64,000 bases of DNA from Dehalococcoidia bacterium (lineage in GTDB: Bacteria; Chloroflexota; Dehalococcoidia; Lucifugimonadales; Australimonadaceae), in the NCBI GenBank assembly GCA_965219845.1, contig CBDCOP010000006.1:294670-358669 (forward strand). The letters are read 5' to 3'. Shown here piece after piece: positions 1-50,448 of the stretch. The notes below the pieces were generated by a model, which saw only the letters and a program-made list of their open reading frames with translations, did not search any database and was not told the DNA's origin. The translations under genes were made by a program, and so were the position numbers. The first letter of the stretch is position 1, and the number at the start of each line of letters is the position of its first letter.

Positions 1-484
1 GGTGCGCTAGGCTGGCCGTCGCCGGAAAGCCTAGGATGACGCGGCGGCATCAGCGGGGCTACTCCCAGCTTTGAACAACGTCCACGGGCACTACATCTAG
101 GCAGTAGGGACGCCCCAAGCAAGCTCTTGGGCAGTCCGGTTCTGCCTGTGGTCTCCCGTGTTTAGCGACGCTCAGGATACGAAGACCACGATTTAGGGAA
201 CTGATCAGTTGCAGGCCACCGGTTCGAGTCTCCCTAAGTACCCCTAGGGAGACTGTACTGCGAATGTTTGAGTGGGCGGTGACCCCGTAGCACTATTGGC
301 AGTGGTGGTCCGTTAGACTTCCGGACTGGTCACCACGACTGCCATGATTGTCGGTTGGCTAGGATAGCGCGTCTTCAATCGCTCTCGCCGTGTGCCCTTT
401 GGGGATTCAGTGAAGGCCGGCTCTCGTTGTCCGCTACAGTCTGCGGTGCTTCCGCGATTCTTGTGGCAATCTGTTCAGGTGGCG

Positions 485-811
485 CTAGTCGACCTCGACG
501 AACACTGCTCCATCCTCAACCCTGACGGGATACACGGTCAATGGCAGGCTCGAAGGACCCTCCAGTCGTTCCCCAGTTCGTACATTAAAGCGGCTGAAGT
601 GGCAGCTGCACTCGATCTCCTCCCCTTCGAGAGGTGGGTCGCCCAGTGGGCCGCCGATTATTTCACAGTCCGCATGGGGGCAGATGTTATTGAAAGCAAC
701 GATCTCACCGTCGATGTTCGCCAGCGCAACCTGAATTGTGTCGTCGATGGGCACGAGCACCATCTTCTCCGGCGTCACGTCATCGACTCGAGCGATCTCT
801 GTTTCCGCCAT
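485..811 (-). CDS. Rieske-type [2Fe-2S] ferredoxin component of an oxygenase system
   Basis: Lies in ORF 485..880(-). The internal ATG at 811 follows AAGGAGGG. Rieske ligand motifs are CPH...CSCH (CPHADC, CSCHFSRF). About 108 aa, the usual size of ferredoxin components. Confidence 0.85.
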   Translation of the reverse strand: MAETEIARVDDVTPEKMVLVPIDDTIQVALANIDGEIVAFNNICPHADCEIIGGPLGDPPLEGEEIECSCHFSRFNVRTGERLEGPSSLPLTVYPVRVEDGAVFVEVD

Positions 812-974
812 TCCTGCCCTCCTTCTCGCCTGCTCGGATTTCGCCAGCCGCTCGCCGATGGCGGATTCCGCCGCTAGCAATGAGTTTGCATGTCGCGGCT
901 TTGGATCGGCCTTTCGGGTATCGCCGTCGACTTTGGATTGGGGCGCTCGCCGCCGCTCGGGGCCGATGATACGT

Positions 975-1903
975 CCCGCTGTATTATCCGTAAATATCCG
1001 ACAGTGCCTCTTCTCCCCTCCTCAGGGGTGGACTGCAAGCCTAGGCTCAGGTGAGGCGATAGTAGTGGTAGGGGTGGAGGAACTCCTCTGAGTTCTGCTG
1101 GCACTCGGAGATGTCCTCCCTGGAGAAGTCCTCCCTACGGTCGTGTAGCCAGCCCTGACACCCTTGCGCATCGTCCGGTTGAAGCTCTCAATGTACTCCT
1201 GCTCGTTCTTCTTGTAAGGCTGAGCCACCCGATGCCGCTGACAGTAGGTCTGCACCCGGTGCGCGAAGGACTCTTTGAACTCACTGCCGCCGTCCGTTTG
1301 AATCAACTCCACCCAGCCATTGAAGCGCCGCGCCATGGCCTGCTCGAGAAAGGCACACCCATAGGCAGCCGTGAGGGCCGGGGCCACTAGGATGTCCGCC
1401 TCCTTGGTATAGATGGCTATGGCGGTGAAAGCGAACAGGCTGCCGAACATGACAGTGTCCATCTGGACTACCTGGCTTGGGCCGCTGGCGACCGGCACAG
1501 GTTCCCCTCCGACGACGTTTCTTCCACTTGGAGCGGATGACGTACCTCTCCCTGAGAATCTCGTAGATCTTGAGCACGGACAGATGTACCCCGTGCATTG
1601 CTCCAGGAAGTAGGCAATCTTCTGCCCACAGCATCCTGACTCCCGTTTCCTGATGGCCCGCACCCCGCGTTTCACGACAGGGTTGACCTGCCTCTTCAGC
1701 CCCTCCCGCTGGATACCACATAGCCACAAGTGGATGGTCTCCTGGTGTCTTCCTAGGCGCCCGGCGATCCGCGCCTTAGGGACTCCTTGCTGGTAGAGAC
1801 CCCAAGCCAGTGTGATCAACGTGAGGTTCGACATGTCCATGACCATATCCATGGACTGTCCGAGGTCTGTCGGGTTTCTACGAAAACAGTGCACCAACTT
1901 GAC
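975..1903 (-). mobile_element. Degenerate DDE insertion sequence (IS481/IS3 retroviral-integrase superfamily), copy 1 of 2
   Basis: 929-bp block repeated at 8604..9532 with constant offset 7629, no indels and about ten substitutions by eye. Imperfect subterminal inverted repeats: TGTATTATCCGTAAATATCCGACAG (980..1004) and TGTTTTCGTAGAAACCCGACAG (reverse strand of 1867..1888). Confidence 0.85.
980..1852 (-). pseudogene. DDE transposase disrupted by at least four frameshifts
   Basis: The frame of ORF 1022..1963 holds the HTH (VPKARIAGRLGRHQETIHLWL) and DDE contexts (VVQMDTV, IQTDGGSEF, NEQEYIESFNRTMRK). The expected continuations lie in other frames: HGVHLSVLKIYEILRERYVIRSKWKK (ORF 1281..1727 frame), CQGWLHDRREDFSREDISECQQNSEEFLHPYHYYR (third frame, my translation) and PHLSLGLQSTPEE (ORF 874..1104 frame). 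Confidence 0.8.
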
Positions 1904-1961
1904 TCCACTTCGTGCATCCCAGATACTGGCGCTTGCGATTCCGAAAACGAAAGGTGATGAC

Positions 1962-2948
1962 ATGGCTGACGATCACCGAATTGGCGCCGTTTACTGGATC
2001 GATCACTACGTAGTAGCTACCAACGACGTCCTGCGTTGGCGCGACTTTTATGCAAATATGTTCTGCGGAGAGCCTTGGGCTCTCGGTGGGCTGACCACGC
2101 AGGAGCGAATGCATGGTGGGCCCATCCGCTGTTTCGTGGAGATGTCCAAGTACCACCATAACGGAGGCTTCCTCCAAGACGAGATGATGCCTCCCACGGA
2201 GGAGTTGGGGCGCGGCATGCCCCGCTACGGATACTTCATCGCGCCCGAAGACATCGACGAACATCTGCGGCGGCTTGAACAGTTTGATGTACCAAATTCG
2301 GGTCCCATCCGCACATCAGAGGATGGCCATGATGGGACAGCCATCTACTTCACGGACCCGGACGGCAATCAGTTGGAGCTATGGGCGCCGACTCGCATGC
2401 CGGAAGGGGCCATGGACACGGCCAACGTCGCCAAAGTGGGACGGATCAGCCACGTTGTCCAGGAGTCAAGGGACCTCAGCCGCACTGCAGAGTTCTACTC
2501 CCGTTACTGCGGCATCGACGTAATCGAGAGCTCTGACATCCCAAAAGATACGCTTTCCATGGAACTGCTGGCCGGCGGCCGGCTCGTATTCAAGCAGGTA
2601 GACGAACTCCATCCCCGCACGGGGAGTCAGAACAAGTGGATCGGGGTGCACACGGCACTCACCGTGCAGGACGACGAGTACCTCCCGGCATATCGAAACT
2701 TCTGGAAGGACTTACCTGAGTCGAATCTGATGCCCTACTCTAACGAGGCGAAGATGGCCGACGAGCAGTCCATGCCGCCCCACACGGAGCTTCACCCCGT
2801 CGTTGCGCGAGGTGTCTGGGAGAATAAGCTAGGCCGCGGTACCATGTTCTTCGATTGGGACACAGCCAACTACCACTTGGTCGGGGGCGTTCCCATCAAC
2901 GGCGGTATGGCTCACTATGGAAAACCAAGCTCGCCACAACTCGCGTAG
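1962..2948 (+). CDS. Two-domain VOC-fold protein (glyoxalase / extradiol-dioxygenase superfamily)
   Basis: Listed ORF 1812..2948 starts inside the IS repeat. The first ATG outside it is at 1962, preceded by AAAGGTGA. Two VOC-like modules: HRIGAVYWIDHYVV...AIYFTDPDGNQLELW and GRISHVVQESRDLSRTAEFY. Confidence 0.75.
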   Translation: MADDHRIGAVYWIDHYVVATNDVLRWRDFYANMFCGEPWALGGLTTQERMHGGPIRCFVEMSKYHHNGGFLQDEMMPPTEELGRGMPRYGYFIAPEDIDEHLRRLEQFDVPNSGPIRTSEDGHDGTAIYFTDPDGNQLELWAPTRMPEGAMDTANVAKVGRISHVVQESRDLSRTAEFYSRYCGIDVIESSDIPKDTLSMELLAGGRLVFKQVDELHPRTGSQNKWIGVHTALTVQDDEYLPAYRNFWKDLPESNLMPYSNEAKMADEQSMPPHTELHPVVARGVWENKLGRGTMFFDWDTANYHLVGGVPINGGMAHYGKPSSPQLA

Positions 2949-3391
2949 GATCCGCGAAGCACCCCTGTGCCCCGAACAAGTAGCCGGGGCGCCCTCCGAT
3001 TGACTTCGGAGGGCGGCTTCCCCTATCCGATGACTGCATCTCCTCGATGGCCACGAAACAGGCCGGATCGGGCAAACCGAGGACCGTAACCGTCGGCACC
3101 GCTCAGTCGTAAAACGCCGGGGAGAACGGGCCTTGTCCGAAGACATGAACGGTGTCCCCAGCTCGCACGACCTGGCTCGCCGACTCAGGCCAGCCCATCC
3201 TGGGTTGATTCGCTCTATATGCATGGAGTCCTCGTTCTCCTGCTTAGATATGGGTCTCTCTGCTACTGGTAGAGGATGCGCAAGTGGGGCGCGACGCAAT
3301 TCACATGGCCCGGTCACACGCCCACGGAGGGCCGATCGCGCCGTGGAGGGGACCTGCTCACACGCGAGCAACAGGTATGCGTGGAATCAGC

Positions 3392-4168
3392 CTAGGGCCG
3401 GGCTCCAGCGGGCTCGGAGCGAGCACCTTTCAGGTGCGCCTCCAAGAACGCAAGCGTCCTAGCCCAAGAGTCCTTCGCAGCCTCCCTGTGGTACGTGCGG
3501 CCGCCCTTTTGGAGAAAGCCGTGGTCTGCTCCAGGGTAGAGGTGGAGCTCGATGTCCTTCTTCAGCTCTCGCATCCTAGACTCGAAGGCGCGGTAGGTAT
3601 CCATCGGGATGCGTTGATCGCTATCGCCAAAGAATCCAATCATTGGGCACGTGATAGCCGCACTATAATCGATGGGATTGTCGGTTTGCAGGAGCTCGTT
3701 CAATGGTGCATCGTTCCGGGGCATGATGCCCCCACCATAATAGATCACGGAGCATGCGATGCCCGATACGCGCGACGCCGCGATGAATGAGGTGCGCCCG
3801 CCCTGGCAGCAGCCCATCACACCGATGCTTTCCTCATCGACGTAGGGCGTGCTCTGGAGATGATCCATTAAGACTTTCAGGTCGTCGACGATCCCGTTGT
3901 CGGTCATGCCAACGCGAAGCGGAGCCGTCTCCTCCATTGTCGTTGCGAACCCATTGCGCGTCGCCCTATGGTACAAGTTCGGTGCGACGGCACAGTAGCC
4001 CTCGTCGGCGAAGGCGCGGGCCAGGTCCTTGATTTGCTGGTCGACCCCCATGGCCGCCTGACAGACGATGACAGTTGGGAACGAACCATCGCCTTCTGGA
4101 CGATAAGTGAAGGTCACCATCTCACCATCAGGCACCTTGAGCTCTACGCTGCCGGAAACCACCGACAC
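3392..4168 (-). CDS. Dienelactone hydrolase family protein
   Basis: ORF 3392..4168(-) with a GTG start after GAGGAGG. DLH-type nucleophile elbow G-C-C-Q-G-G and C-terminal GADHGF. 258 aa. Confidence 0.8.
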   Translation of the reverse strand: MSVVSGSVELKVPDGEMVTFTYRPEGDGSFPTVIVCQAAMGVDQQIKDLARAFADEGYCAVAPNLYHRATRNGFATTMEETAPLRVGMTDNGIVDDLKVLMDHLQSTPYVDEESIGVMGCCQGGRTSFIAASRVSGIACSVIYYGGGIMPRNDAPLNELLQTDNPIDYSAAITCPMIGFFGDSDQRIPMDTYRAFESRMRELKKDIELHLYPGADHGFLQKGGRTYHREAAKDSWARTLAFLEAHLKGARSEPAGARP

Positions 4169-4199
4169 AATCCCACCTCCTCAACTGTTATAAATCGGC

Positions 4200-5372
4200 C
4201 TACTCGATAGCGGCGATCCCCTCGATTGCCACGAGGCAGTCTGGGTTGGGCAACCCAAGAACGGCGAAGTCTGTGCTTGTTGGAGGCGCCCCGGCGTAGA
4301 AGGCCTCGCGCGCCTTGCGTACGTTGGGGAAGTAGTCTGGTCGGGCCATGTAAGTCGTTGTCCGCACCATGCTGGACCGGCTCCCCCCGGCCGCCCCCAG
4401 AGCAGCATCCAGATTCTGGTACACTTGGTCGAGTTGGGCGTCGATGTCACCCTTGCCTACGACATTGCCGGAGGGGTCCATAGCGGCTTGCACAGCAATA
4501 TAGGCGATGCCGTCAGCCACCACTACCTGGCTAGACCCGTCGACCGGCGTCATCAGCGTCGGAGGGTTGAGGTACCGCTTCTCACCACCAATTACAGCCG
4601 TCGCCTCGACTTCAATCACACCGACGGGGTCAGGACCAACGCTCCACACGCACATCGACGTGCAGGCGGGAGCGTGGTCGCCGTAGAACTCTGCCTGGGC
4701 CGTCACGGCACCCTCATAGTAGCGGAAATGGGTGAAATACGTGAGGTGGCGGACGACATCGTTCTTGGTGGCTCCTGCCGCGTGGAGGACATTCTCCATA
4801 TGCCGGTAGGACATCTCCGCCTGAACCCCAACGTCGCACGGGCCAACCATCTTGCCGTAGTCCCGGGCCATCTGCCCAGTGGTGTACACGACGTTACCCG
4901 CCCTGGCGCCTTGGGGGTGCCCGCTGGTCTGCTGTATCTCCGGTGGGTTGATGGGTTGGAGGGTTGCTGCTGTAGTGCCAACCGAACCGATGGCGTCGAC
5001 TTCCACTAGTACGTTGGAGCCGACATGGGCTGGTATGACTACGGTGGTGCTCGCGGCCGGACGCGCCCCGCTGGATAGCACAGGCAGATACTCTTCGCGC
5101 GCGCGCACAACCGCTCCGAAGTACTCCGGCCGCGTTACATAGATGCTAACCTTGAGGACGCTATGCATCCCGCTACCGACGGACGCAAGGGCGTCCGCCA
5201 CGCCCTTGAAGGCTAGGGACGCTTGGGCATCGGCGTCGCCGATGCCCAAGACCTCACCGCCAGGGCCAAAGGGGCCGTGCCCGGCAACATAAACAGTGTC
5301 GCCCGCGCGCACCACCTCGCTGACCGAACCAAGTGGCCCAATACCCGCAGGGTTGTTTCGCTCGATTGCCAT
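4200..5372 (-). CDS. Single polypeptide with three tandem RidA/YjgF/L-PSP domains
   Basis: 390-aa ORF. Three ~125-130 aa modules each show the RidA pattern, for example VRAGDTVYVAGHG...VLKVSIYV...VEVDAIG; ARAGNVVYTTGQ...VVRHLTYF...IEVEATA; VVADGIAYIAVQ...MVRTTTYM...VAIEGIAAIE. Confidence 0.8.
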   Translation of the reverse strand: MAIERNNPAGIGPLGSVSEVVRAGDTVYVAGHGPFGPGGEVLGIGDADAQASLAFKGVADALASVGSGMHSVLKVSIYVTRPEYFGAVVRAREEYLPVLSSGARPAASTTVVIPAHVGSNVLVEVDAIGSVGTTAATLQPINPPEIQQTSGHPQGARAGNVVYTTGQMARDYGKMVGPCDVGVQAEMSYRHMENVLHAAGATKNDVVRHLTYFTHFRYYEGAVTAQAEFYGDHAPACTSMCVWSVGPDPVGVIEVEATAVIGGEKRYLNPPTLMTPVDGSSQVVVADGIAYIAVQAAMDPSGNVVGKGDIDAQLDQVYQNLDAALGAAGGSRSSMVRTTTYMARPDYFPNVRKAREAFYAGAPPTSTDFAVLGLPNPDCLVAIEGIAAIE

Positions 5373-5412
5373 GCTATGGTTGTCTGCTCTCTCCGCCTGT
5401 GCGCTTTCCCTG

Positions 5413-6600
5413 CTAGCCGCCCAGCGTTCGCATTTTCATTTCCAGCTTGCCGAGCCGCCGCGCGCCGTTGGATTCGACAACAATCGTGTTTCCTGCGCGG
5501 TTGCGGCGCTTGCCGTCAGCCGTGACGACTGCTGGCTTGAGGATGAAGCACTGCCCTTGCCTGACGAGCTGACCGTCCATGGTGCCAGGCCGGACCATCG
5601 GGCCGTCCTCGGCGAGGCCCATACCGTGCCCTAAGAATCCGCCCGTGTATTCGGAACTGTACTTCTTGATGGTGTCCTGGGTAATCTGAATCAGATCGTT
5701 CCATGGCACGCCGGGCTTCATCGCCTCCAACACGGCGTTGAAGCAGTCAAGCGAGATATCGAACAGCGTTTGGTACTCCTGAGGAGGCGTGCCGACGCAA
5801 AAGGTCTCGTCTCCTTGGGCCATGTAGCCCATGTATTTGGCGTCGAACTCAGTGAAGATGATGTCGTTGGCCCCGAGGCTCCGGAACGTGGGCATCAGCC
5901 ATGTCTGGTTGGGCTCGGGCTCTGCTACGAAAAGAGCCATCGTGGGCAACTCCCCGCCGCCGCGAACCATGGCGCTTATCATCTGGCCGTACACTTCGTG
6001 CTCGGTCACGCCGGGACGGGCCGATTCAAAAAGTGCCTCACTTGCCTTGTCTGCGAGATCGGCTGCACGCTCCATGAAGACGATCTCCTCCGGACTCTTT
6101 TCCATCCGGACTTCCTGCATCATCTCGGTAACGTCTTCGAAATGCGCCTCCCGCAGCCCCGAGCGAACGTTCTCCCACTCGGTGTGGGAAACCGAGCCCT
6201 CGGGGTCGCGGAGGTGCCCCTGCAGCCCGACGACGCCGATTCTCCCGCTTTCGTGGCCCGCATCCTTGACCGCTTGGACGATCGACTCGCTCCACATACC
6301 AGTCTTGCCCCGAGTGTCCTCCACCCAGTTCTGAGCACGCTTCCACCACTCCCGCCGCTGCGGGTCACGCACGATGGCAACCGGGTCGCCCTCAATCGGG
6401 AACACTGCCGCAACGCCCGTGCAATTGCCTCCAATGCCCGTTAGGTAGCGAATATCAATTTGATAGTTGTCCCAGTCCCCGTTGCTGTGGGGTAATACCA
6501 GACAGTCCAACCCCTGCGCCACCATCTGGGCTCGAACCGCCCCATAGCGGCGATCTCGCTCCTCCTTCGAGAACCTCGGGAAACTGACTTCGTCCAACAT
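5413..6600 (-). CDS. M24-family metallohydrolase (creatinase / Xaa-Pro dipeptidase-like)
   Basis: ORF 5413..7059(-) is over-extended; the ATG at 6600 follows GGAGGGG. Creatinase/prolidase-type N-domain followed by a pita-bread domain (FTEFDAKYMGYMAQGDETF..., GHGMGL). 395 aa. Confidence 0.75.
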   Translation of the reverse strand: MLDEVSFPRFSKEERDRRYGAVRAQMVAQGLDCLVLPHSNGDWDNYQIDIRYLTGIGGNCTGVAAVFPIEGDPVAIVRDPQRREWWKRAQNWVEDTRGKTGMWSESIVQAVKDAGHESGRIGVVGLQGHLRDPEGSVSHTEWENVRSGLREAHFEDVTEMMQEVRMEKSPEEIVFMERAADLADKASEALFESARPGVTEHEVYGQMISAMVRGGGELPTMALFVAEPEPNQTWLMPTFRSLGANDIIFTEFDAKYMGYMAQGDETFCVGTPPQEYQTLFDISLDCFNAVLEAMKPGVPWNDLIQITQDTIKKYSSEYTGGFLGHGMGLAEDGPMVRPGTMDGQLVRQGQCFILKPAVVTADGKRRNRAGNTIVVESNGARRLGKLEMKMRTLGG

Positions 6601-6677
6601 GTGCGCCCCTCCATGTGCGAATGCCCCTAACGCGTAAGCCCTGAATCTCAGCACAACGGGCCCGGACAGCCCGTGTG

Positions 6678-7547
6678 TCAACGGATGGTCGATACTCCCA
6701 TGGAGCGGAACATCCTCTCTGTCTGATCGCGAGTATCGCCGATGTACGGGACATGCTCCGGGCGATGCTCGTCGTCTGTGACTGCCGCCGCGGTATACCC
6801 GCCGTCCACGTACCAGACCGCTCCGGTTACGAACTTCGCCTCCTCGGTCGCCAGGAAGATCGCTGGACCGACTAGGTCCTCCTCGCGGCCAACCCTGCCG
6901 AGCGGCAGACGCCGCAACCGCTCCTTGACCTCGGCGAGTTGCCCGCCAGTGTGCGCCTGGCGACCATGTCCCAGACTGTTGACGCGGATGCCGTAGCCGC
7001 CCATGGCGTGGGCCATCGCCCGCATCATTGCATCGCGTGCACCGCATATCGCGCTCCAAGGGACAGCGCCACCCGATCCCAGCCGCGACACGATGGACGT
7101 GAGGTTGATGATGCTTCCGCTACCACGTCGCGCCATCTCTTTGCCAAGGTACTGGCAGGTGAGGAAGTAGCTCTTCACTCCGAGATCGATACCCTGGTCC
7201 CAATCGTCAACGGACAACTCAAATATGACACCGTGGGTGTTACGGCCGCCAGGTGTGTTAACGAGGACGTCCACCCTCCCAAACTTCGCGAGCACGTCCT
7301 CGGTCAACCGGGCAACCTCCGACCCTCTGGTAACGTCGTAGATACCCGACTCGACCCGCTGTCCCACGCGTGCACCTTCGTCCGTGGAGGACGTCTCCGA
7401 CGCGATGATGAGCAGGGGACCCTCGCTTCCTGGGGCCTCTTGCAGGAACAGGTCGGCTCCTTCCCGAGCGTAACCGAGAGCAATAGCTCGCGCCAGAGGG
7501 CCTGATGCTCCGGTGATGACTGCTACTTTGCCTGCGAGCCGTTTCAC
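6678..7547 (-). CDS. SDR-fold protein, atypical (catalytic Tyr and Lys positions replaced)
   Basis: In ORF 6678..7700(-). GTG at 7547 lies 5 nt after GGAGG. Rossmann motif VITGASGPLARAI. Where classical SDRs have YxxxK it reads PWSAICGAR. Confidence 0.7.
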   Translation of the reverse strand: MKRLAGKVAVITGASGPLARAIALGYAREGADLFLQEAPGSEGPLLIIASETSSTDEGARVGQRVESGIYDVTRGSEVARLTEDVLAKFGRVDVLVNTPGGRNTHGVIFELSVDDWDQGIDLGVKSYFLTCQYLGKEMARRGSGSIINLTSIVSRLGSGGAVPWSAICGARDAMMRAMAHAMGGYGIRVNSLGHGRQAHTGGQLAEVKERLRRLPLGRVGREEDLVGPAIFLATEEAKFVTGAVWYVDGGYTAAAVTDDEHRPEHVPYIGDTRDQTERMFRSMGVSTIR

Positions 7548-7605
7548 TGTGACCTCCACTCGTGATCGAGATTCGTACTGGCAACAATCCCGCAGGTTCT
7601 CATCG

Positions 7606-8436
7606 CTACTTGCCCTTATAGCGCTGAGGAGGCCGGACCTCGTCCTTCCCCTCGGGACGGTGCTCCGCATCGGTCGTCGCTGCAACGGTGTAGCCACCAT
7701 CGGCGTAGAGCACCGTCCCGGTCACCCAGTCGGAGTCGGAAGTCGCCAGGAAGATGGCGGGGCCAACCACGTCGTTGTGCAGCCCAAGGCGCCCGAATGG
7801 CAGACGGCGCAGTCGCTCGTGCTGACCGGGGTTCGTCGGTGCCGACGAACCATCGCTACGCGTATGGCCGCGAGCGAGAGCGTTAACGTTCACTCCGTAT
7901 AATCCCAACGCATGCGCCTGCGCCTTGGTCATGCCGTCCACGCCGCCCCTGGCGGCACTCCAAGGCACCGCCCCGCCCGAGCCGAGCACGCCTACGACGG
8001 AAGATAAGTTGATAATCTTGCCACTAGCGTTGCGGGCCATCTCCTTCCCGATGTGTTTCACCGTCAGGAAGTAGCTCTTGAGCCCCACCGCCATGCAGCG
8101 ATCCCACTGGTCCTCGGTGATGTCGAAAAAGACCCCATGTGCGCCGTCCGCTGCCGTGTTCACCAGGATGTCAATCCTTTTGAAGTCGGTCATAGCCTGC
8201 TTCGTCATGTCGACTACAGCGCGTTCGTCGGTAATGTCGAACACACCGGTACTGACCTTGCGTCCGTCGCCACCCGCAGCCTTGACAGTCTTGAGGACAT
8301 CCTTCATCCTTTCATGATTCTTGGGGAAGAACTGAAGGTAGAGGTCGGCTCCCTCCCGAGCGAACCCGCACGCTATGGCCTGCGCGAACTGGCCATCCGC
8401 ATCCGTAATGACGGCCACTTTGCCTTCCAATCTCAT
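7606..8436 (-). CDS. SDR-fold protein, atypical paralog (Tyr->Trp, Lys->Arg; degenerate Gly-rich motif)
   Basis: In ORF 7606..8580(-), ATG at 8436. N-terminal motif VITDADGQFAQAI instead of TGxxxGxG. The active-site stretch IINLSSVVG...PWSAARGGV aligns to NxSS...AYSASKAAV. Confidence 0.7.
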   Translation of the reverse strand: MRLEGKVAVITDADGQFAQAIACGFAREGADLYLQFFPKNHERMKDVLKTVKAAGGDGRKVSTGVFDITDERAVVDMTKQAMTDFKRIDILVNTAADGAHGVFFDITEDQWDRCMAVGLKSYFLTVKHIGKEMARNASGKIINLSSVVGVLGSGGAVPWSAARGGVDGMTKAQAHALGLYGVNVNALARGHTRSDGSSAPTNPGQHERLRRLPFGRLGLHNDVVGPAIFLATSDSDWVTGTVLYADGGYTVAATTDAEHRPEGKDEVRPPQRYKGK

Positions 8437-8603
8437 CGCATTTCCTCGTGAAGTGAACTTGGTGTCGGACGGCTTAGCTGTTGGAATCAAACGCTGCGAA
8501 TTTCCTCCATAAACCTCGGTACAGGCGAGTTTACCTTGAGAGGACATCTCCAATACCCAAACGTGGGGTTCCTTTATCATGGCTCCTGAGTCATGTCAAG
8601 GCC

Positions 8604-9532
8604 CCCGCTGTATTATCCGTAAATATCCGACAGTGCCTCTTCTCCCCTCCTCAGGGGTGGGCTGCAAGCCTAGGCTCAGGTGAGGCGATGGTAGTGGTAG
8701 GGGTGGAGGAACTCCTCTGAGTTCTGCTGACACTCGGAGATGTCCTCCCTGGAGAGGTCCTCCCTACGGTCGTGTAGCCAGCCCTGATACCCTTGCGCAT
8801 CGTCCGGTTGAAGCTCTCAATGTACTCCTGCTCGTTCTTCTTGTAAGGCTGAGCCACCCGATGCCGCTGACAGTAGGTCTGCACCCGGTGCGCGAAGGAC
8901 TCTTTGAACTCACTGCCGCCGTCCGTTTGAATCAACTCCACCCAGCCATTGAAGCGCCGCGCCATGGCCTGCTCAAGAAAGGCACACCCATAGGCAGCCG
9001 TGAGGGCCGGGGCCACTAGGATGTCCGCCTCCTTGGTATAGATGGCTATGGCGGTGAAAGCGAACAGGCTGCCGAACATGACAGTGTCCATCTGGACTAC
9101 CTGGCTTGGGCCGCTGGCGACCGGCACAGGTTCCCCTCCGACGACGTTTCTTCCACTTGGAGCGGATGACGTACCTCTCCCTGAGAATCTCGTAGATCTT
9201 GGGCACGGACAGATGCACCCCGTGCATTGCTCCAGGAAGTAGGCAATCTTCTGCCCACAGCATCCTGACTCCCGTTTCCTGATGGCCCGCACCCCGCGTT
9301 TCACGACAGGGTTGACCTGCCTCTTCAGCCCCTCCCGCTGGATACCACATAGCCACAAGTGGATGGTCTCCTGGTGTCTTCCTAGGCGCCCGGCGATCCG
9401 CGCCTTAGGGACTCCTTGCTGGTAGAGACCCCAAGCCAATGTAATCAACGTGAGGTTCGACATGTCCATGACCATATCCATGGACTGTCCGAGGTCTGTC
9501 GGGTTTCTACGAAAACAGTGCACCAACTTGAC
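8604..9532 (-). mobile_element. Degenerate DDE insertion sequence, copy 2 of 2
   Basis: Same 929-bp block as 975..1903. Flanked by AAGGCC (8598..8603) and AAAGCC (9533..9538), 5/6 identical, possibly a decayed 6-bp target duplication. Confidence 0.85.
8609..9481 (-). pseudogene. DDE transposase with the same frameshifts as copy 1
   Basis: ORFs 8651..9616(-) and 8973..9356(-) reproduce the frame pattern of copy 1 (same garbage tails, same out-of-frame HGVHLSVPKIYEILRERYVIRSKWKK segment). Confidence 0.8.
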
Positions 9533-9590
9533 AAAGCCTACCGATTCTGGTAAAGCATCGCTTGCAGGTGGTTCCCTGCGGGAGGTCCAG

Positions 9591-10760
9591 ATGGATTTGT
9601 CATCACTTTTTCGCAAAGGTTTGGTGCTCGCGGTCGTAGCACTTGGAAGCTCGGTGCTCCTCGGCTCTTGTGGTAGCGACGACCCGACACCAACGTTAGA
9701 GCCTCAGCCCACCGCGACTCCGGTGCCTCAAGCCGCCACTGCGACTCCGACGTTAACGGCCTTGCAAAGACTCATTGAGGCCGCCGCAGCCGAGGGGCAG
9801 GTCATCATTGAAGGAGGCCCCTTTGATGAGCCTGAGGCCGCCAACGAAGCCGAGGCTGCGATCAAGGCCATGTGGGGGATCGACTTGGATATCCAGCAGG
9901 TTCCCAACCCAGTTGGAAGTCAGAACGCGCACGCGGCCAAGCTGATCAAGGAGGCCGAGGCCGGTCAGCGTCACTCGACAGACATGTTTACTGGCACACA
10001 GTCCACCGCGCCATTACTTATCACGTCAGGCGTGGCCCAGAGGGTGAACTGGCGCGCCTTCGATCCGAGCATCCCAGAGGATGCTGTTGACGGAATGGGC
10101 GCTGCGCTAGCTTTTGGAACCCGCATGGGCGGCATCGCCTACAACACAAACGAAGTCTCCCCCGACGACGTTCCGAAGTCCTTCGACGACCTACTGGATC
10201 CGAAATGGAAGGGCCGGATCGCAACCACCCCGTACGTGGCGGTCTGGGACAGGGCCACGCTATATACCCCTGGTGAGGAGATTGAGGCCTTCCTCAAAGA
10301 GCTGTCGGATAATGGCAACCTTGCGGGGCTCATTGGCTGTGGTGGTGATGTGGACCGTATCGTGACCGGGGAGTTCGCGATGCTGGCCATGATCTGTAGC
10401 GACAACGGTGTGTATCAGCTTCAGGACAAGGGCGCGCCGATCGAGATCGCCTTCATTCCTGAGACTACCGACATCTCGCACGGCTACCTGGTCATACCGC
10501 AGCCGGACACGATTAACCACCCGAATGCGGCCATACTGTATGCAATCTTCAATCTGACCCCAGAGGGGCAGGCCCTCCACCGGAAGTACAACTTCTGGGA
10601 CCTGCACTACATAGAGGGCAATGAAACTTACAATCGTGTTGAGGCGCTCCGTGCCCAGGGTATCAATCCGCCAGTGATCGACACAGACGACGTGATCGCT
10701 GAGCAGGAATCCTTCTCCGCGTGGGCGGCCAAGTTCCGAACCATCGTCCGAGGAGGCTAG
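9591..10760 (+). CDS. ABC transporter substrate-binding lipoprotein (family-1 SBP; Fe3+/polyamine/thiamine-like class)
   Basis: Listed ORF 9450..10760 starts in the IS. ATG at 9591 follows GGGAGG. Signal peptide with lipobox LLGSC, then a Pro/Thr-rich linker. Matching permease and ATPase genes lie at 15.0-18.0 kb. Confidence 0.8.
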   Translation: MDLSSLFRKGLVLAVVALGSSVLLGSCGSDDPTPTLEPQPTATPVPQAATATPTLTALQRLIEAAAAEGQVIIEGGPFDEPEAANEAEAAIKAMWGIDLDIQQVPNPVGSQNAHAAKLIKEAEAGQRHSTDMFTGTQSTAPLLITSGVAQRVNWRAFDPSIPEDAVDGMGAALAFGTRMGGIAYNTNEVSPDDVPKSFDDLLDPKWKGRIATTPYVAVWDRATLYTPGEEIEAFLKELSDNGNLAGLIGCGGDVDRIVTGEFAMLAMICSDNGVYQLQDKGAPIEIAFIPETTDISHGYLVIPQPDTINHPNAAILYAIFNLTPEGQALHRKYNFWDLHYIEGNETYNRVEALRAQGINPPVIDTDDVIAEQESFSAWAAKFRTIVRGG

Positions 10761-10796
10761 TCCTTCACGGGGCTGCGTAAGTGACGGTAGCGATAG

Positions 10797-10834
10797 CAGG
10801 CAGGCCACGCCCCCGAAAGGGTGTGGCTTGCCTG
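10797..10834 (+). terminator. Strong hairpin just after the SBP stop codon (terminator candidate, weak U-tract)
   Basis: CAGGCAGGCCACGCCC-ccgaaa-GGGTGTGGCTTGCCTG: a 16-bp stem with two G-U pairs. The following sequence is not U-rich. Confidence 0.4.
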
Positions 10835-10874
10835 TGTCCGGTGCGCTTCAGAGGCAAGGGAAGGCCGCTATATT

Positions 10875-11215
10875 GCCTTTCATTCGTGAGACCACGACAT
10901 TCTGGAAGCTTCCCGGCTATCCCACAGCCGAACCGAATCACCCACCCGCGTGTGGCCCCACTGTACGCGATCTCCCAACTGGGCCCCGGGGCCGGCCCTT
11001 CCACCGAAAGTGCAACTTCCGGGACCTGCACTTAATCGAGGGTATCGAAACCACGAGCGTGTTGATGTGCTGCTTGCCGAGGGCATCGCCACGGGACTCT
11101 TCCCTCCAAGTGGACCGACCAAGTTCCGAACGATCGCCCAGGACGCCAGTCCCCGGGCCGCGTAAGTGGCGGTAGCGACAGTGCAGGGCACAGCCTTCGG
11201 AGCGTAGCCCTTTGC
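10875..11215 (+). pseudogene. Degenerate tandem duplicate of the 3' end of the SBP gene plus its downstream region
   Basis: 10875.. aligns with 10449..~10836, for example CACCGAAAGTGCAACTTCCGGGACCTGCAC vs CACCGGAAGTACAACTTCTGGGACCTGCAC and CGTAAGTGGCGGTAGCGACAG vs CGTAAGTGACGGTAGCGATAG. There are multiple indels. Fragments translate as HRKCNFRDLHLIEG vs HRKYNFWDLHYIEG. Confidence 0.75.
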
Positions 11216-11270
11216 TGTATCCCTGTACCTGGCTGGCCCGAGATGGGGGCGACGGGGCTCCCTTACGCAG

Positions 11271-11304
11271 AGATGGCGCTGAGTTTGCTTGCACAGCGCC
11301 ATCT
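11271..11304 (+). terminator. Intrinsic-terminator-like hairpin between convergent genes
   Basis: Perfect 11-bp stem AGATGGCGCTG / CAGCGCCATCT with a 12-nt loop, followed by TCCTGTTCTATT on the + strand. Lies between the SBP remnant (+) and the oxygenase gene end (-). Confidence 0.5.
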
Positions 11305-11347
11305 TCCTGTTCTATTGGCGGGGCCCTTGCTTGCCCAAGACTCCGCG

Positions 11348-12649
11348 CTAGGCGAAGGTCATCTCCTGGAACTTCGCCAGTTCCTTCCAGGCCTCCCGCC
11401 AGTCCTCCCCTTTCTCCAGGACGGTGACGTAGCCACCCATGAGCGGGAACCGATTGTCCTCCGGCCTCCGTATGTCGAGGGGAACCTCCCCGGTTTCCAT
11501 CATGTGCCGGATAGCCTGGATTGTGACCTTCCGCGCGAGGGCAACGGCCTTGTCTCCGGGAGCCAAGTGCTCCCGGGTCCGGTCCTCGATGAACCCTTGA
11601 CCCTCCGTCGCCATCGCGTCATGGACGTTGAAGTTGGGTCCGAGGCCGATGAAGCTCCGGGACACCATCTCCTCACGATCCTGGAGGTAACGGTTGCTCC
11701 CATTCCGCCGAAGGGTGTAGTCGGGAAGGACGTCTCGGTCCTGACGGGAATACTCGAGCCGTTCGATGTCCAGAGGCTCGACAATCGTGTGGCCGAAGCT
11801 GAACTTCCAGTGGTGGTGATCGTCGATCGGCACGTGCCAATTGACGCTGTAGCCGTCGCCTCGCGGGCGATTGCCCGAGAAGATGCCAATGCTTGGGTAG
11901 ACGAAGTTGTTCATACGTACGTAGGTCCGGCCATCGTCCGTGATCCGTAGCGCCCACAACCGGACTCCGAAGTCGGCCTCTTCGGCTTCGACCCGTGGCG
12001 CTACGTCGCGGCTCACTAGGGCGTTGGCGGTAGTGCTAGCTCCCGGCACATTCGAGCTCTGGGCGGATCGGCTTTGTGCGTCCTCGCGGATGAACTTGTG
12101 CAAGTAGGAGATATGCGGAGGGTCGATCTCGCCCTCCAGTCCCTGGAGGAAGTTGCACTCCTGGTAGACCTTGTTGCAGGTCCGCTTATCCTCGGACACG
12201 ACCAAGAAGGAGTAGCGCGGGGGCAGGGGAGGCTTGTCCGGCCCCATGTACGTGAGGATAACGCCGCCCATCTCAACGCAAGGGTAGGCGGGGTGCTGGA
12301 TGCGGTCCTTGAAAGTGCTGCTCGCGGACTCCGCTGGCTGGTCGAGGCATTGCCCGTTGATGTCGTACAGCCAGCCGTGGTATACACAGCGGATGCCTCC
12401 GTCCTCGAGACGACCGAAGCTCAGGTCGGCCTGCCGGTGCGAGCAGTGCCGCGCGAGCAGGCCCGGCCGCCCTGCGTCATCCCTGAAGAGCACGAGATCC
12501 TCGCTCAGCAGTCGCACCGGCTTCGGAGGGGAACCGTGTGGGAGCTCCTCGCTCAGGGCGACGGGGTTCCAGTACCTGCGGTGAAACCTGCCAGCCGGCG
12601 TTCCGGGACCGGTCTGGGTTATCAGATCGTTCTCCTCCCGAGTCAGCAT
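11348..12649 (-). CDS. Rieske non-heme iron oxygenase, alpha (catalytic) subunit
   Basis: 433-aa ORF; ATG follows AAGGAGG. Rieske motif CSHRQADLSFG...CVYHGWLYD. The N-terminus LTREENDLITQTGPGTPAGRFHRRYWNPV is typical of the phthalate/VanA-type family. Confidence 0.85.
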   Translation of the reverse strand: MLTREENDLITQTGPGTPAGRFHRRYWNPVALSEELPHGSPPKPVRLLSEDLVLFRDDAGRPGLLARHCSHRQADLSFGRLEDGGIRCVYHGWLYDINGQCLDQPAESASSTFKDRIQHPAYPCVEMGGVILTYMGPDKPPLPPRYSFLVVSEDKRTCNKVYQECNFLQGLEGEIDPPHISYLHKFIREDAQSRSAQSSNVPGASTTANALVSRDVAPRVEAEEADFGVRLWALRITDDGRTYVRMNNFVYPSIGIFSGNRPRGDGYSVNWHVPIDDHHHWKFSFGHTIVEPLDIERLEYSRQDRDVLPDYTLRRNGSNRYLQDREEMVSRSFIGLGPNFNVHDAMATEGQGFIEDRTREHLAPGDKAVALARKVTIQAIRHMMETGEVPLDIRRPEDNRFPLMGGYVTVLEKGEDWREAWKELAKFQEMTFA

Positions 12650-30589: not shown

Positions 30590-31135
30590 CATACCTCCAC
30601 CGCTGCCCCCCGACCCTCACCCCCAGCCCCTCTCCCGCTCAGCGGGTGAGGGGCGCCGTACACCCCGCACCTCCCCATCTCACAGTACCCTCACCCTAGC
30701 CCTCTCCCCTTGTAGAGACCTTTTGCATAACCCGTCCACACCGCCCCGGAGTACCCTCACCCTAGCCCTCTCCCCTTGTAGAGACCTTTGCATAACCCGT
30801 CCACACCGCCCCGGAGTACCCTCACCCTAGCCCTCTCCCCTTGTAGAGACCTTTTGCATAACCCGTCCACACCGCCCCGGAGTACCCTCACCCTAGCCCT
30901 CTCCCCTTGTAGAGACCTTTTGCATAACCCGTCCACACCGCCCCGGAGTACCCTCACCCTAGCCCTCTCCCCTTGTAGGGAGAGGGGATCAGGCCTCTCG
31001 CCACTCCTCCCAAAGCGCCCTCGCCACAGTTACGCAAAGGTCTCCTTGTAGGGAGAGGGGATAAGTCCACTCCCCCCGCCCCACGAGAGGCTCGCTGTGC
31101 CGCTCCCTGGATTCCCGCCTGCGCGGGAATGACGA
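30590..31135. repeat. REP cluster (families A, C and variants)
   Basis: Palindromes CCCCTCTCCCGCTCAGCGGGTGAGGGG, CCCTCTCCCCTTGTAGGGAGAGGGGATC (twice) and GGATTCCCGCCTGCGCGGGAATGAC fill the spacer between two convergent genes. Confidence 0.9.
30685..30992. repeat. Tandem array, 66-bp unit x ~4.6
   Basis: Unit GTACCCTCACCCTAGCCCTCTCCCCTTGTAGAGACCTTTTGCATAACCCGTCCACACCGCCCCGGA starts at 30685, 30751, 30816, 30882 and 30948 (periods 66/65/66/66). Only the last unit has the complete REP-A palindrome. Confidence 0.95.
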
Positions 31136-31746: not shown

Positions 31747-31904
31747 CAGGCTCCTCTTTGTTGGGACTGGATGGCGCGCCGGTACGCGTCGTTCCATGAA
31801 CGGCTGCGTCCAACGCGGTCAGGGGATGTCAAGGAACACTACGAAGAGACGAAGTATCTGGATCTATCGGACAGTCGGCGCGTTATGCGAATCCGGGACC
31901 CTTG

Positions 31905-32165
31905 CGCAACCCATCCACCCGCCCCCGAGTACCCTCACCCTCGCCCTCTTGTAGGGAGCTTTGCGTAACGCCATCGCATCCCCCAAACCCCGCGATTCAC
32001 CCCCATCCTAACCTTCCCCCATCGAGGGGGAAGGGATCAAATAGCCCCGCCCCGCATCCCCTCTCACGGTTATGCAAAGGTCTCCTTGTAGGGAGAGGGG
32101 ATCGAATACACCGGCTCACGCAGGGCCCTCATCCTGGCCCTCTCCCTCAGGAGAGGGAATCAAGC
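31905..32165. repeat. REP cluster (A, B, A, A' units)
   Basis: Contains an intact REP-B unit (GATTCACCCCCATCCTAACCTTCCCCCATCGAGGGGGAAGGGATCAA, 31995..32040) followed by REP-A and REP-A' (CCCTCTCCCTCAGGAGAGGGA). Confidence 0.9.
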
Positions 32166-38914: not shown

Positions 38915-39107
38915 GCTTCGCTCAACATGACAACTCCCCTACTCCCCCACTCCCACAGGGCCCTCACCCTAACCCTCTCCCTCAGGAGAGGGGACCGAGC
39001 CCTCACCCCCTCGCCCCCGCAGTACCCTCACCCTCGCCCTCTCCCCTTGTAGAGACCTTTGCATAACCCCATCGCACACCCCAGACCCCGCCGATTCACC
39101 CCCATCC
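38915..39107. repeat. REP cluster (A', A, left half of a B unit)
   Basis: Ends ...GATTCACCCCCATCC, which is the left half of REP-B, cut by the IS110-family element. Confidence 0.9.
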
Positions 39108-39281
39108 TTGTATGGTGATGGAAGGCGGGGCAGGCCGCCCCATCCTGGGTCCCAAAAGACCGCAGGTTAGCTTGACCGCCCCGCCCCCATTCACCCGCCC
39201 TACCGGCTGCCCGAACAGTTGCCTGAGCCAACGAGCTCGTATCACAAGGCTGGGCACGGCAGGGCGCAAGGAGGATACCGC
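39108..39281 (+). ncRNA. Candidate bridge (guide) RNA of the IS110-family element
   Basis: CCCCATCCT (39138..39146) equals the left flank. GGTTAG (39165..39170) is the reverse complement of right flank CTAACC. A small hairpin GGTC-ccaaaa-GACC lies between them. ACAGTTGC (39215..39222) equals the element's right end (40230..40237). Confidence 0.45.
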
Positions 39282-40220: not shown

Positions 40221-40237
40221 CCCGCAATCACAGTTGC

Positions 40238-40329
40238 TAACCTTCCCCCATCGAGGGGGAAGGGATCAAATAACCCCGCACCGCATCTCCCTCACGGTTA
40301 TGTAAAGGTCCCCTTGTAGGGAGAGGGGA
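40238..40329. repeat. REP cluster (right half of the B unit, then an A unit)
   Basis: Starts TAACCTTCCCCCATCGAGGGGGAAGGGATCAAATA; ends CCCCTTGTAGGGAGAGGGGATCAA. Confidence 0.9.
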
Positions 40330-41193
40330 TCAATTCCCGAGATACGCCTCGCGGGCGGAGCGGTAGTCGGCGGTCCCGGTGGCGATGCCCATCATCTCCG
40401 GAGTCGGCTCGCGGCCGGCGAGGTCGGCGGAGGGCGCGCCGGACGCCTGGTGCGCGAGCGATTCGTAGACGGTGCGGACGGTCTGCGTGAACGTGCCGTG
40501 TCCGCGCAGCACGATCTTCACACCGTAGCGGGCGAGGATGTCGGTCGTGAGCGCCCCCGGCGTGCTGCCGAGCATGAAGGGCAGGCCCGTGAGGGCGCGC
40601 GCGGCCTGCAGGTGCGCCTCCTCCCGCACGCCCATGAGGAAGATGCCGTCCACGCCGGTCTCCGCATAGGCGGCGACGCGCACGAGCGCATCGTCGAGGC
40701 TGGTGGCGTTGATGGCGTGGGTGCGCCCCAGGATGACGGTCGCGTCGTCCTGCCGGGCGGCGACGGCGGCGCGCAGCTTGCCGGTCATCTCGTCGACCGG
40801 GATGAGCTCCTCCTTGCCGCCTGAGCCGTACCGGCTGGGAAGCGACGTGTCCTCGATGGTCATGCCGCTCGCGCCCGCATCCTCCAGTTCGCGGACGGTG
40901 CGCATGACGTTCAGCGCATTGCCGTAGCCGTTGTCGGCGTCGATCATCTGGCTGATGTCGGATGCGCGGGTGATGCGGCGCACCTGGTCGGCGAGCTCGG
41001 TGAGGGTCATCACGGCGACGTCCGGCGCTCCGAGGATGACGGCGCTCGCTATTGAGCCGCCGAGCATGCCGACTTCGAATCCGAGGGCGTAGGCGGTGCG
41101 CGACGAGACGGGGTCGAACACGGATGCGGGACGGATGCAGCCCTCGCGCTGGAGGTAGTCGCGCAGGCGTCGGCGGCGGTCGGTGACGTGCAT
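40330..41193 (-). CDS. Isocitrate lyase / PEP mutase superfamily enzyme (oxaloacetate decarboxylase / methylisocitrate lyase-like)
   Basis: 287-aa ORF. Family patterns DADNGYGNA and GMTIEDTSLP. Lacks the EDKxxxxxNS signature of true PEP mutases. Confidence 0.7.
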   Translation of the reverse strand: MHVTDRRRRLRDYLQREGCIRPASVFDPVSSRTAYALGFEVGMLGGSIASAVILGAPDVAVMTLTELADQVRRITRASDISQMIDADNGYGNALNVMRTVRELEDAGASGMTIEDTSLPSRYGSGGKEELIPVDEMTGKLRAAVAARQDDATVILGRTHAINATSLDDALVRVAAYAETGVDGIFLMGVREEAHLQAARALTGLPFMLGSTPGALTTDILARYGVKIVLRGHGTFTQTVRTVYESLAHQASGAPSADLAGREPTPEMMGIATGTADYRSAREAYLGN

Positions 41194-41269: not shown

Positions 41270-41475
41270 CCATCGCAGGAACGACGGGAGGGACGCCGGG
41301 CCTCCCCAGCCCCCGGTTCACCCTCACCCTAACCCTCTCCACTCAAGGGAGAGGGGATCAGACGGGAATGACGAAAGGGACACCGGGCCGGTTCACCCCC
41401 ATCCTGGCCTTCCCCCATCGAGGGGGAAGGGACCAAGCAGGGGCGAGGTTCCTGCCTCCGCAGGAACGACGAGGT
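41270..41475. repeat. REP cluster (D-half, A', C-half, B, D)
   Basis: Contains CCCTCTCCACTCAAGGGAGAGGGGATC, TTCACCCCCATCCTGGCCTTCCCCCATCGAGGGGGAAGGGACCAAGC and AGGTTCCTGCCTCCGCAGGAACGACG. Confidence 0.9.
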
Positions 41476-46345: not shown

Positions 46346-46437
46346 CCTTCCCCCATCGAGGGGGAAGGGATAGAACACCGCCCTGCATGCACCTTCCCCA
46401 AGGCTATGCAAGGGTCTCCATGCAGGGAGAGGGGAGC
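46331..46437. repeat. REP cluster (B, A variant)
   Basis: TTCACCCCATTCCTAACCTTCCCCCATCGAGGGGGAAGGGATAGAA and TCTCCATGCAGGGAGAGGGGAGCC lie between convergent genes. Confidence 0.9.
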
Positions 46438-47685: not shown

Positions 47686-47739
47686 CGTGGTCTCCTCTCG
47701 ATCCGGGACCTCGTGCAACCTCACCGCTCCCCACTTCAC

Positions 47740-47792
47740 CCCGGAGTACCCTCACCCTAGCCCTCTCCCCTTGTAGGGAGAGGGGATCGGAG
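47740..47792. repeat. REP-A unit
   Basis: GGAGTACCCTCACCCTAGCCCTCTCCCCTTGTAGGGAGAGGGGATCGG. Confidence 0.9.
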
Positions 47793-50355: not shown

Positions 50356-50395
50356 AGAGCCTTGCAGAACCATCAGCACACCCCAATCTCCACCC

Positions 50396-50448
50396 CTCGG
50401 AGTACCCTCACCCTAGCCCTCTCCCCTTGTAGGGAGAGGGGATCAACA
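50396..50448. repeat. REP-A unit
   Basis: GGAGTACCCTCACCCTAGCCCTCTCCCCTTGTAGGGAGAGGGGATCAA. Confidence 0.9.

Follow-up and report, generated by a model that had tools for sequence, protein, structure and literature searches.

In the 64,000-nucleotide stretch of contig CBDCOP010000006.1 of an uncultured Dehalococcoidia bacterium (hereafter, the window), two copies of one insertion sequence (IS) in direct orientation bracket six genes of a catabolic cluster. We propose that the pair is probably a non-mobile pseudo-composite, which arose by promoter-targeted insertion and by recombination within this one cluster. As a structure, the pair is of an ordinary kind; what deserves attention is the target specificity of the IS clade to which it belongs. 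The comparison of insertion sites strongly supports the idea that members of this clade insert with a sigma70-type -35 hexamer just beyond the 5-bp target duplication, the predicted promoter reading away from the IS. Our literature searches found no description of promoter-specific IS targeting of this kind, so that, to our knowledge, the target specificity of the clade is undescribed.

The repeat blocks are 929 bp long. Aligned at their offset of 7629, which is constant, they differ by exactly 10 substitutions and show no indels, in agreement with the first-pass annotation, which had counted about ten substitutions. The blocks are 6,700 bp apart (1904-8603), and the in-register identity outside both of them falls straight to background, about 25-38%. 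The direct orientation that had been reported for the pair is also correct: the 5' end of the transposase gene, at the left inverted repeat (IRL), faces the gene of a VOC-fold protein in copy 1 and that of an ABC-transporter solute-binding protein (SBP) in copy 2. A self-comparison of the 64-kb window revealed neither a third IS copy nor stray IS ends.

The repaired translation of the blocks finds a large family of single-open reading frame (ORF) transposases of 288-300 residues, which are 60-77% identical to it (for example P0002 and P0012) and in which Pfam recognises the domains HTH_23, HTH_32, rve and rve_3. The earlier assignment of the blocks to a DDE insertion sequence therefore stands, on the basis of the HTH, rve and rve_3 domains. 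The limits of the element were defined from an identical pair in another genome (L007/L008), a relative (L006) and at least 40 further loci. Intact relatives are 935-950 bp long, with CGCA...GCG ends, a 5-bp target duplication and imperfect inverted repeats that read CGCA(A/T)TGTTTCCGTAGAAATCCGACAG and CGCAxTATTATxCGTAAATATCCGACAG. The window copies end in TGCAC.../...ACAGCG, where intact relatives have CGCA(A/T)TGTTTCC.../...ATT(G/A)CG; in copy 1 the right inverted repeat (IRR) is at 977 (CGCTGTATTATCCG...) and the IRL at 1893 (...CAGTGCA). The nearest intact relatives are found in metagenome-assembled genomes (MAGs) of Dehalococcoidia. No intact copy of the window lineage above 77% identity was found in a collection of 5.8 billion proteins, and the 929-bp block has no blastn match among 72,556 plasmids; an intact relative has tblastn matches of at most 35% identity there, and the nearest annotated relatives borne on plasmids do not exceed this value.

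What the blocks contain is a compact DDE insertion sequence with a single ORF, in two decaying copies; it belongs to an IS481-like clade. Like IS481 (NF033577), the element is about 1 kb long and encodes, in a single ORF and without programmed frameshift, a DDE transposase with an N-terminal HTH and an rve core. IS481 is the top-scoring IS family model for P0002, end to end (profile positions 11-283 of 284), while IS3 scores 76.6; the IS481 score of 121.3 bits is nevertheless below the curated cut-off of 224 of that equivalog. The target duplications of the IS481 family range from 2 to 15 bp and are mostly 6 bp long (PMC10045372). The 5 bp of the clade described here fall inside this range but differ from the usual 6 bp of IS481 members, and its CGCA...GCG termini differ from the TGT...ACA reported for IS481-like elements.

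The target specificity was deduced from the related loci L007, L008 and L013-L092; GTDB genomes alone gave 231 matches to the family, of which 80 were used. The clade occurs in Dehalococcoidia, Chloroflexia, Patescibacteria, Nitrospira, Armatimonadota and gammaproteobacterial MAGs, and the insertion pattern holds across several phyla. A perfect 5-bp duplication is present in 44 of 59 insertions. The exact motif TTGAC abuts the duplication in 33 of the 59, next to the IRR in 24 of them and next to the IRL in 9, and the base that follows it is A in 26 of these 33. When at least five matches to TTGACA are required, the hexamer is present in 36 of 58 independent insertions, compared to 0.7% at control offsets, on the IRR side in 26 cases and on the IRL side in 10; with at least four matches, the figures are 46 of 58 and 7.8%.

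The -35-like hexamer does not come alone. In 32 of the 36 insertions with at least five matches, a -10-like hexamer (at least 4/6) follows after 16-18 bp, while the other side of these insertion sites has such a hexamer in only 7 of 58 cases. Among the 32 exact TTGAC sites that were scored, 28 have a -10-like hexamer with at least four matches (6.5 in shuffled sequences) and 12 have one with at least five (about 1 in shuffled sequences); in 26 the best spacer measures exactly 17 bp, and 24 have both A2 and T6. What lies between and beyond the hexamers varies from site to site and is separated from the IS by the variable duplication, which shows that it belongs to the target DNA and not to the IS. 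It could be that survivorship contributes to the -10 signal, if insertions at TTGACA inside genes are purged. Whether a widespread IS481-like clade integrates exactly 5 bp upstream of the -35 element (TTGACA-N17-TAnnnT), in either orientation and leaving the core promoter intact, is a proposal to which we give about even chances. A comparison of the transposase HTH with sigma70 region 4 gave no Pfam match, even at E <= 10.

Both window copies show, as judged from sequence, the docking geometry of the family on their IRL side. The shared blocks are longer than the IS: on the IRR side they include two further bases (CC, 975-976), and on the IRL side ten (CCAACTTGAC). In these ten bases, CCAAC occupies the position of the duplication and TTGAC that of the target motif, and it is the beginning of a promoter-like sequence at either copy (Table 1). 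Copy 2 also has a promoter-like sequence on its IRR side, where the minus strand reads in full IS-GGGGCC-TTGACA-17-TAAAGG. The VOC and SBP genes thus probably keep their own predicted core promoters just outside the IS.

This bears on the equal spacers of 58 nt that separate the IS blocks from the ATGs at 1962 and 9591. These spacers, the ATGs and the flanking hexamers that had been listed (ATACGT/TCCACT and AAGGCC/AAAGCC) are all found in the sequence, but an outward-reading IS promoter, with which the spacers had been called compatible, is not supported, since the common TTGAC lies outside the IS and is the target motif of the family, a -35 box. Docking 5 bp upstream of -35 boxes that are at a similar distance from their ATGs would give the equal spacers, and with core promoters outside the IS, an outward IS promoter is not needed on the IRL side. 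On the IRR side of copy 1, a hybrid of an IS-borne TTTACG and a flanking TATCAT reads toward the ferredoxin gene (811-485) and is a possible candidate promoter. Beyond the IS, the two copies have only 10 + 2 bases in common, so that the blocks are not part of a larger segmental duplication; the two spacers agree at 19 of 58 positions (P = 0.22), which confirms that no larger duplication is hidden there. We note that the 7-mer CGCTTGC occurs in register in both spacers, at 1930-1936 and 9559-9565, just 3' of the predicted -10 hexamers (P about 0.005). It could be there by chance, or it could be a common operator or start-site motif.

The target duplications are missing. In the family geometry, the 5-bp flanks are CGTCC/CCAAC for copy 1 and GCCCC/CCAAC for copy 2, and the flanks of the whole unit, CGTCC (972-976) and CCAAC (9523-9527), are no duplication either. 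The first-pass annotation had seen a decayed 6-bp duplication at copy 2 (AAGGCC/AAAGCC, a 5/6 match). It is outside the geometry of the family, which makes 5-bp duplications at its CGCA...GCG ends, and the likeness comes mostly from two divergent -35-like hexamers, TGTCAA (8594-8599) and TTGACA (9528-9533). That copy 1 lacks a duplication had been recognised before and ascribed to recombination; CGTCC and CCAAC indeed differ, and recombination is a good explanation.

Both copies have decayed in the same way. Compared with intact relatives, 13 nt have been inserted into their 5' leader, and an in-frame deletion of 48 nt has removed 16 codons within HTH_32. They also have three internal frameshifts (at about 1596, 1504 and 1161 of the window), a 15-nt in-frame insertion, a -1/+1 indel pair close to the 3' end, as a result of which the frame meets a stop about 25 codons too soon, and a D-to-A change in the conserved AIDIY motif. 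The alignment of the DNA to intact relatives gives five frameshifting indels, where "four or more" had been announced; with the 16-codon deletion and the truncated C-terminus, they confirm that the IS copies are dead in the window strain. In the pseudogene of copy 1, the family stop TAA is at 986-984 and the possible starts are 1852 or 1840. A 313-codon open frame (1022-1963) was considered as an intact gene and rejected as a frame-mixing artefact of the high GC content.

The common lesions had been taken as evidence that inactivation predates the duplication of the IS. This conclusion is not supported, because strain assemblies with the same junctions differ in three of the five frameshifts, and because the copies evolve in concert. 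Three long-read contigs, L001 (part of a 3.49-Mb contig), L002 and L003, match the window at 99.0-99.9% identity and contain both copies, arranged as they are there. Copy 1 of L003 (L003:13469-14398) has none of the three internal frameshifts and one open HTH+rve frame of 268 codons; it is the least decayed copy, and yet it lacks the 16 codons and about 25 C-terminal residues, which include positions that are invariant in the family. One of the three frameshifts is present in L003 copy 2 and in L002 copy 1, two are present in L002 copy 2, and all three in L001 copy 2 as in both window copies; L010 copy 2 is ancestral at the first site. L001 copy 1 has a private compensating insertion, and further private indels, one of them a 19-nt deletion, are found in L010, in L011 and in L009, an Illumina scaffold from another project. 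All the gaps in the alignment of L001 and L002 to 15 kb of the window are within the IS copies, a distribution that fits pseudogene decay among genes under selection and does not agree with random read error.

Four substitutions (1416, 1648, 1651 and 1660) are present in both copies of L003 and absent from both copies of the window, L001 and L002, which shows concerted evolution of the copies through gene conversion or unequal exchange; positions 1101, 1810 and 1814 remain copy-specific in three strains. Considering this concerted evolution and the polymorphic frameshifts, the common lesions cannot date the inactivation. The four junctions are identical in all assemblies, so that the two-copy arrangement is older than the divergence of the strains. 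The 48-nt deletion and the C-terminal frameshift pair are in every copy of every strain, and it may be that the progenitor was already crippled.

Our preferred scenario combines docking and recombination. The IS would have docked 5 bp upstream of -35 boxes in the catabolic cluster, and later recombination between the copies would have produced the identical CCAAC and the loss of the duplications. The same half-duplication and target motif at both copies suggest a conversion or duplication ending in a 5-bp microhomology. Gene conversion or break repair, with its anchor in the IS and its end point in TTGAC, would be one route. Copy 2 could alternatively result from recombination between IS copies: with promoter-like targets on both sides and no duplication, it looks like a recombinant of two insertions, or like a copy hit by a further event. 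Simpler histories were considered and rejected. Two clean transposition events explain the promoter geometry but not the identical CCAAC (which has a probability of 1/1024 by chance), and of the single-event histories, namely Campbell integration of a circle, unequal crossing-over and a single insertion between back-to-back -35 boxes, none yields all four junctions unless extra events are added.

It is conceivable, but in our opinion rather unlikely, that copy 1 does not result from transposition at all: its IS and CCAAC would be a replica of those of copy 2 (or vice versa), made by template switching or by homology-facilitated illegitimate recombination. The joins would then lie in the microhomologies CC (975-976) and TTGAC (1899-1903), and the promoter context of copy 1 would be partly coincidental. 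Such copying would account for a common block that exceeds the IS ends by 2 and 10 bp and stops exactly at the end of TTGAC, and for the lack of a duplication at both copies; it also agrees with the lesions found in all copies, since the progenitor was maybe already defective, and with the TSD-less (target site duplication-less) IS copies on record that are tied to duplications or rearrangements (PMC11708052). However, copy 1 sits in the exact family geometry, N5-TTGACT-17-GATACT, with the start of the -35 box 63 nt before the ATG, while shuffled sequences yield a -10-like match of at least 4/6 only about 20% of the time, and copying leaves the missing duplication of copy 2 unexplained. The conversion variant of our scenario is in fact hard to separate from this alternative, since both converge on IS-anchored repair or conversion that ends in TTGAC. 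A quite different explanation, which we consider improbable, was implied by the first-pass annotation: a composite transposon or translocatable unit would have brought the six genes, as an accessory module, into an existing Rieske-oxygenase/ABC cluster. The genes are indeed bracketed by direct IS copies, the ferredoxin on one side and the oxygenase on the other resemble an interrupted cluster, and the locus borders a region rich in mobile elements. However, there is no 5-bp duplication around the unit or around either copy, each junction resembles a promoter-docked insertion site, and every assembly that has these genes has them in the same context, no second one having been found. The GC profile shows no compositional break at the boundaries of the segment. 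Homologues of the inside genes (triple-RidA, VOC, M24) adjoin homologues of the outside genes (Rieske, SBP, permease, ATPase, AA_synth, amidohydrolase) in distant relatives that are free of the IS. In L094, a 57% homologue of the outside Rieske oxygenase is directly upstream of a 53% triple-RidA homologue. In L104, a VOC homologue with 60.5% identity precedes those of the SBP (41%), the permease (53%) and the ATPase (61%) by about 2 kb, and an M24 homologue (36%) is also present. A 32.5-kb JGI contig without IS has a 52% triple-RidA homologue and, by Pfam content, M24, SBP, Rieske/LigXa_C, triple-RidA, VOC, SDRs, AA_synth and amidohydrolase; it is not among the 10 loci found in a metagenome scan with the triple-RidA alignment. 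We infer that the pair did not deliver the six genes and that the inside and outside genes would form one pathway neighbourhood.

The last possibility, that the repeat or the common frameshifts are artefacts of assembly or consensus calling (collapsed or mis-polished metagenomic repeats), is very improbable. The source is metagenomic, the related assemblies have a low coverage of 2-10x, and one of the polymorphic indels sits in a G4/G3 run. On the other hand, L001-L003 cover both copies together with unique flanks, and two further strain contigs, L010 and L011, extend to copy 2 with identical junctions (a third one, L012, ends within the IS). The short-read contig L004 corresponds exactly to 1874-8633 of the window and stops 30 bp into each copy, as a true repeat would make it do. 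The copy-specific substitutions mentioned above are retained in three strains, and the flanking 13 kb of coding DNA are free of indels. Sequencing error was also rejected as the source of the strain indels: they are concentrated in the IS, only one of the three polymorphic ones falls in a homopolymer run, and the independent Illumina scaffold L009 has its own combination of states.

Several observations weigh against the scenario that we prefer. The identical CCAAC at both IRL junctions calls for an extra step of conversion or repair, and since neither copy has retained a matching duplication, at least one more unseen event has to be assumed at the IRR sides. In both copies the promoter lies next to the IRL, an orientation that only a minority of the insertions shows (10 of 36), and the -10-like hexamers of copy 2 are weak (3/6). 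That the targets of the clade are functional promoters is what we infer from their motifs; an ORF starts just downstream of the motif in 15 of 33 cases, compared to 9 of 33, a weak result from a crude distance test. The synteny in favor of one cluster comes from distant relatives (36-61% amino-acid identity), and in the case of the JGI contig from Pfam content only. A search with the SBP of flank B gave no homologue between the cluster at 100% and 41% identity. The searches for an empty site and for a second context found none and have low power, since the databases hold only strain-level relatives.

The arrangement can be compared to known systems. Tn9, with IS1, is a compound transposon with direct IS repeats. 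In Tn9 and in the translocatable units of IS26 (PMC4196232), as in the window, two direct copies of one IS surround passenger genes, which can be deleted, excised or amplified when the repeats recombine. The window pair differs by the lack of a functional transposase (in the window strain), of a target duplication and of a second context; moreover, its transposase is not of the IS6/IS26 family and its passengers belong to the surrounding pathway cluster. Regarding what defines a composite transposon, the IS are paired, but a working transposase, a duplication flanking the unit, and a second context or an empty site were not found. IS copies devoid of target duplications, resulting from IS-IS recombination, adjacent deletion or rearrangement-linked movement, have been described (Ngan et al. 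2024, PMC11708052). The window copies are like them in having recognisable IS ends, no duplications and recombination as the preferred explanation; they differ in that both also have the same half-duplication and target motif on one side.

For target choice, the nearest analogue is the IS1202/ISAjo2 group, whose members are at a fixed 5 bp from XerC sites. These are also DDE elements related to the IS481 lineage, with a fixed 5-bp distance to a protein-binding site that is left intact. In the clade described here, by contrast, the target is a sigma70-type -35 element and not a Xer site, both orientations occur, and the element is about 0.94 kb long compared to about 1.5 kb; this comparison is one of features only.

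The features are listed in Table 1.

Table 1. Features of the window discussed in the text (positions are those of the window).
Feature	Positions	Strand	Basis or remark
Repeat block, copy 1	975..1903	(-)	929 bp, block alignment
Repeat block, copy 2	8604..9532	(-)	929 bp, block alignment
IS proper, copy 1, 917 bp	977..1893	(-)	alignment to intact 938-bp relatives L006, L007, L008
IS proper, copy 2, 917 bp	8606..9522	(-)	alignment to intact relatives
Transposase pseudogene, copy 1	984..1852	(-)	frame translations, alignment to P0002/L006; Pfam rve/HTH_23 fragments
Transposase pseudogene, copy 2	8613..9481	(-)	alignment to intact relatives
Ten non-IS bases CCAAC+TTGAC by copy 1 IRL	1894..1903	(+)	CCAAC, family duplication position; TTGAC, target motif
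Ten non-IS bases CCAAC+TTGAC by copy 2 IRL	9523..9532	(+)	same as at copy 1
Promoter-like TTGACT-17-GATACT, 5 bp outside copy 1 IRL	1899..1927	(+)	consensus scan; -35 start 63 nt before VOC ATG
Promoter-like TTGACA-17-TAAAGC, TGg directly before -10	9528..9556	(+)	-35 start 63 nt before SBP ATG
Promoter-like TTGACA-17-TAAAGG toward SDR genes, 6 bp outside copy 2 IRR	8571..8599	(-)	sequence reading
Hybrid promoter-like site at copy 1 IRR: IS-borne TTTACG, flank TATCAT	966..994	(-)	consensus scan 9/12, 17-bp spacer
Rieske-type ferredoxin, 108 aa, like dioxygenase ferredoxin subunit (flank A)	485..811	(-)	NCBIfam HcaC/AndAb-like; Rieske/Rieske_2 in L001-L003
VOC/glyoxalase-fold protein, 328 aa	1962..2948	(+)	Pfam Glyoxalase/VOC
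Dienelactone hydrolase (DLH) family protein, 258 aa	3392..4168	(-)	Pfam DLH 7.8e-46
Triple-RidA (YjgF/L-PSP) protein, 390 aa	4200..5372	(-)	Pfam Ribonuc_L-PSP, three stretches
Creatinase_N + Peptidase_M24 hydrolase, 395 aa	5413..6600	(-)	Pfam, NCBIfam
SDR oxidoreductase, 289 aa	6678..7547	(-)	Pfam adh_short
SDR oxidoreductase, 276 aa; first in minus-strand five-gene run	7606..8436	(-)	Pfam adh_short
ABC-transporter solute-binding protein, 389 aa (flank B)	9591..10760	(+)	Pfam
Rieske/LigXa_C oxygenase, 433 aa (flank B)	11348..12649	(-)	Pfam
Dispersed repeat loci	30684-30978, 31902-32103, 38942-39108, 40234-40331, 41389-41440		
Dispersed repeat loci, rest	46317-46435, 47717-47790, 50360-50445, 51525-51651, 62446-62566		

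Regarding the genes, Pfam agrees with the earlier description of the six that are enclosed (VOC, DLH, triple-RidA, M24 and two SDRs), and flank B further contains AA_synth, amidohydrolase, ABC permease and ABC ATPase genes. The triple-RidA protein is rare: only 12 of them were found in the collection of 5.8 billion proteins, the nearest one outside the species being 53% identical. In two distant relatives it is encoded directly downstream of a LigXa-type Rieske oxygenase, which suggests a dedicated pair of an oxygenase and a putative imine deaminase. Between the convergent VOC and DLH genes, 443 bp (2949-3391) have no gene called in any assembly, and a 180-codon ORF (2829-3371, minus strand) without Pfam match is probably spurious. 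A direct repeat of about 250 bp with 73% identity (10418-10664 and 10845-11087) covers the 3' end of the SBP gene and continues in the non-coding DNA that precedes the Rieske oxygenase gene. Rfam gave no match over positions 1-12000.

Beyond the left end of the window, the long-read contigs contain the region rich in mobile elements mentioned above (L001:15515-20240, L002:15514-21146, L003:15861-21173), with a large serine recombinase split in two ORFs and the genes of an IS1182-like DDE_Tnp_1 transposase, an AAA_25 protein and an HNH protein. This region varies between strains, L003 having instead IS630-type, IS21-type and Mu-like transposase genes. It may be that the whole cluster is on a genomic island. 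Elsewhere in the window, a family of dispersed intergenic repeats, with units of 50-130 bp that are 78-100% identical, occupies the loci listed in Table 1, one of which is a tandem array of 4.5 copies of 66 bp. The units hold a CCCTCTCCC...GGGAGAGGG hairpin, whose fold z-score is only -1.6, and these repeats look like repetitive extragenic palindromes (REP) or miniature inverted-repeat transposable elements (MITE).

In the window strain, the pair is immobile on its own, but its direct homology of about 920 bp can delete or amplify the 6.7-kb segment in between. Its present effect is likely to be the recombinational instability of this segment, and possibly an altered upstream control of three promoters. 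Two cautions apply to similar loci: genes that are IS-flanked are not for this reason IS-delivered, and identical lesions in two IS copies do not prove that the lesions are older than the duplication when the copies convert each other.

The clade has wider implications. If its specificity resides in the reaction itself, it would be a bacterial counterpart of the promoter-targeted integration by yeast Ty3 or Tf1, and a new safe-haven strategy of a bacterial transposon. The transposition reaction could then recognise either the -35 DNA itself or, by docking, the RNA polymerase or sigma bound to the promoter, and the IS pair of the window would be the fossil of docking at three promoters in one catabolic cluster. 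Such insertions would provide a natural promoter marker for uncultured lineages such as Dehalococcoidia and Patescibacteria, and the element would be a possible starting point for tools for promoter-proximal DNA insertion.

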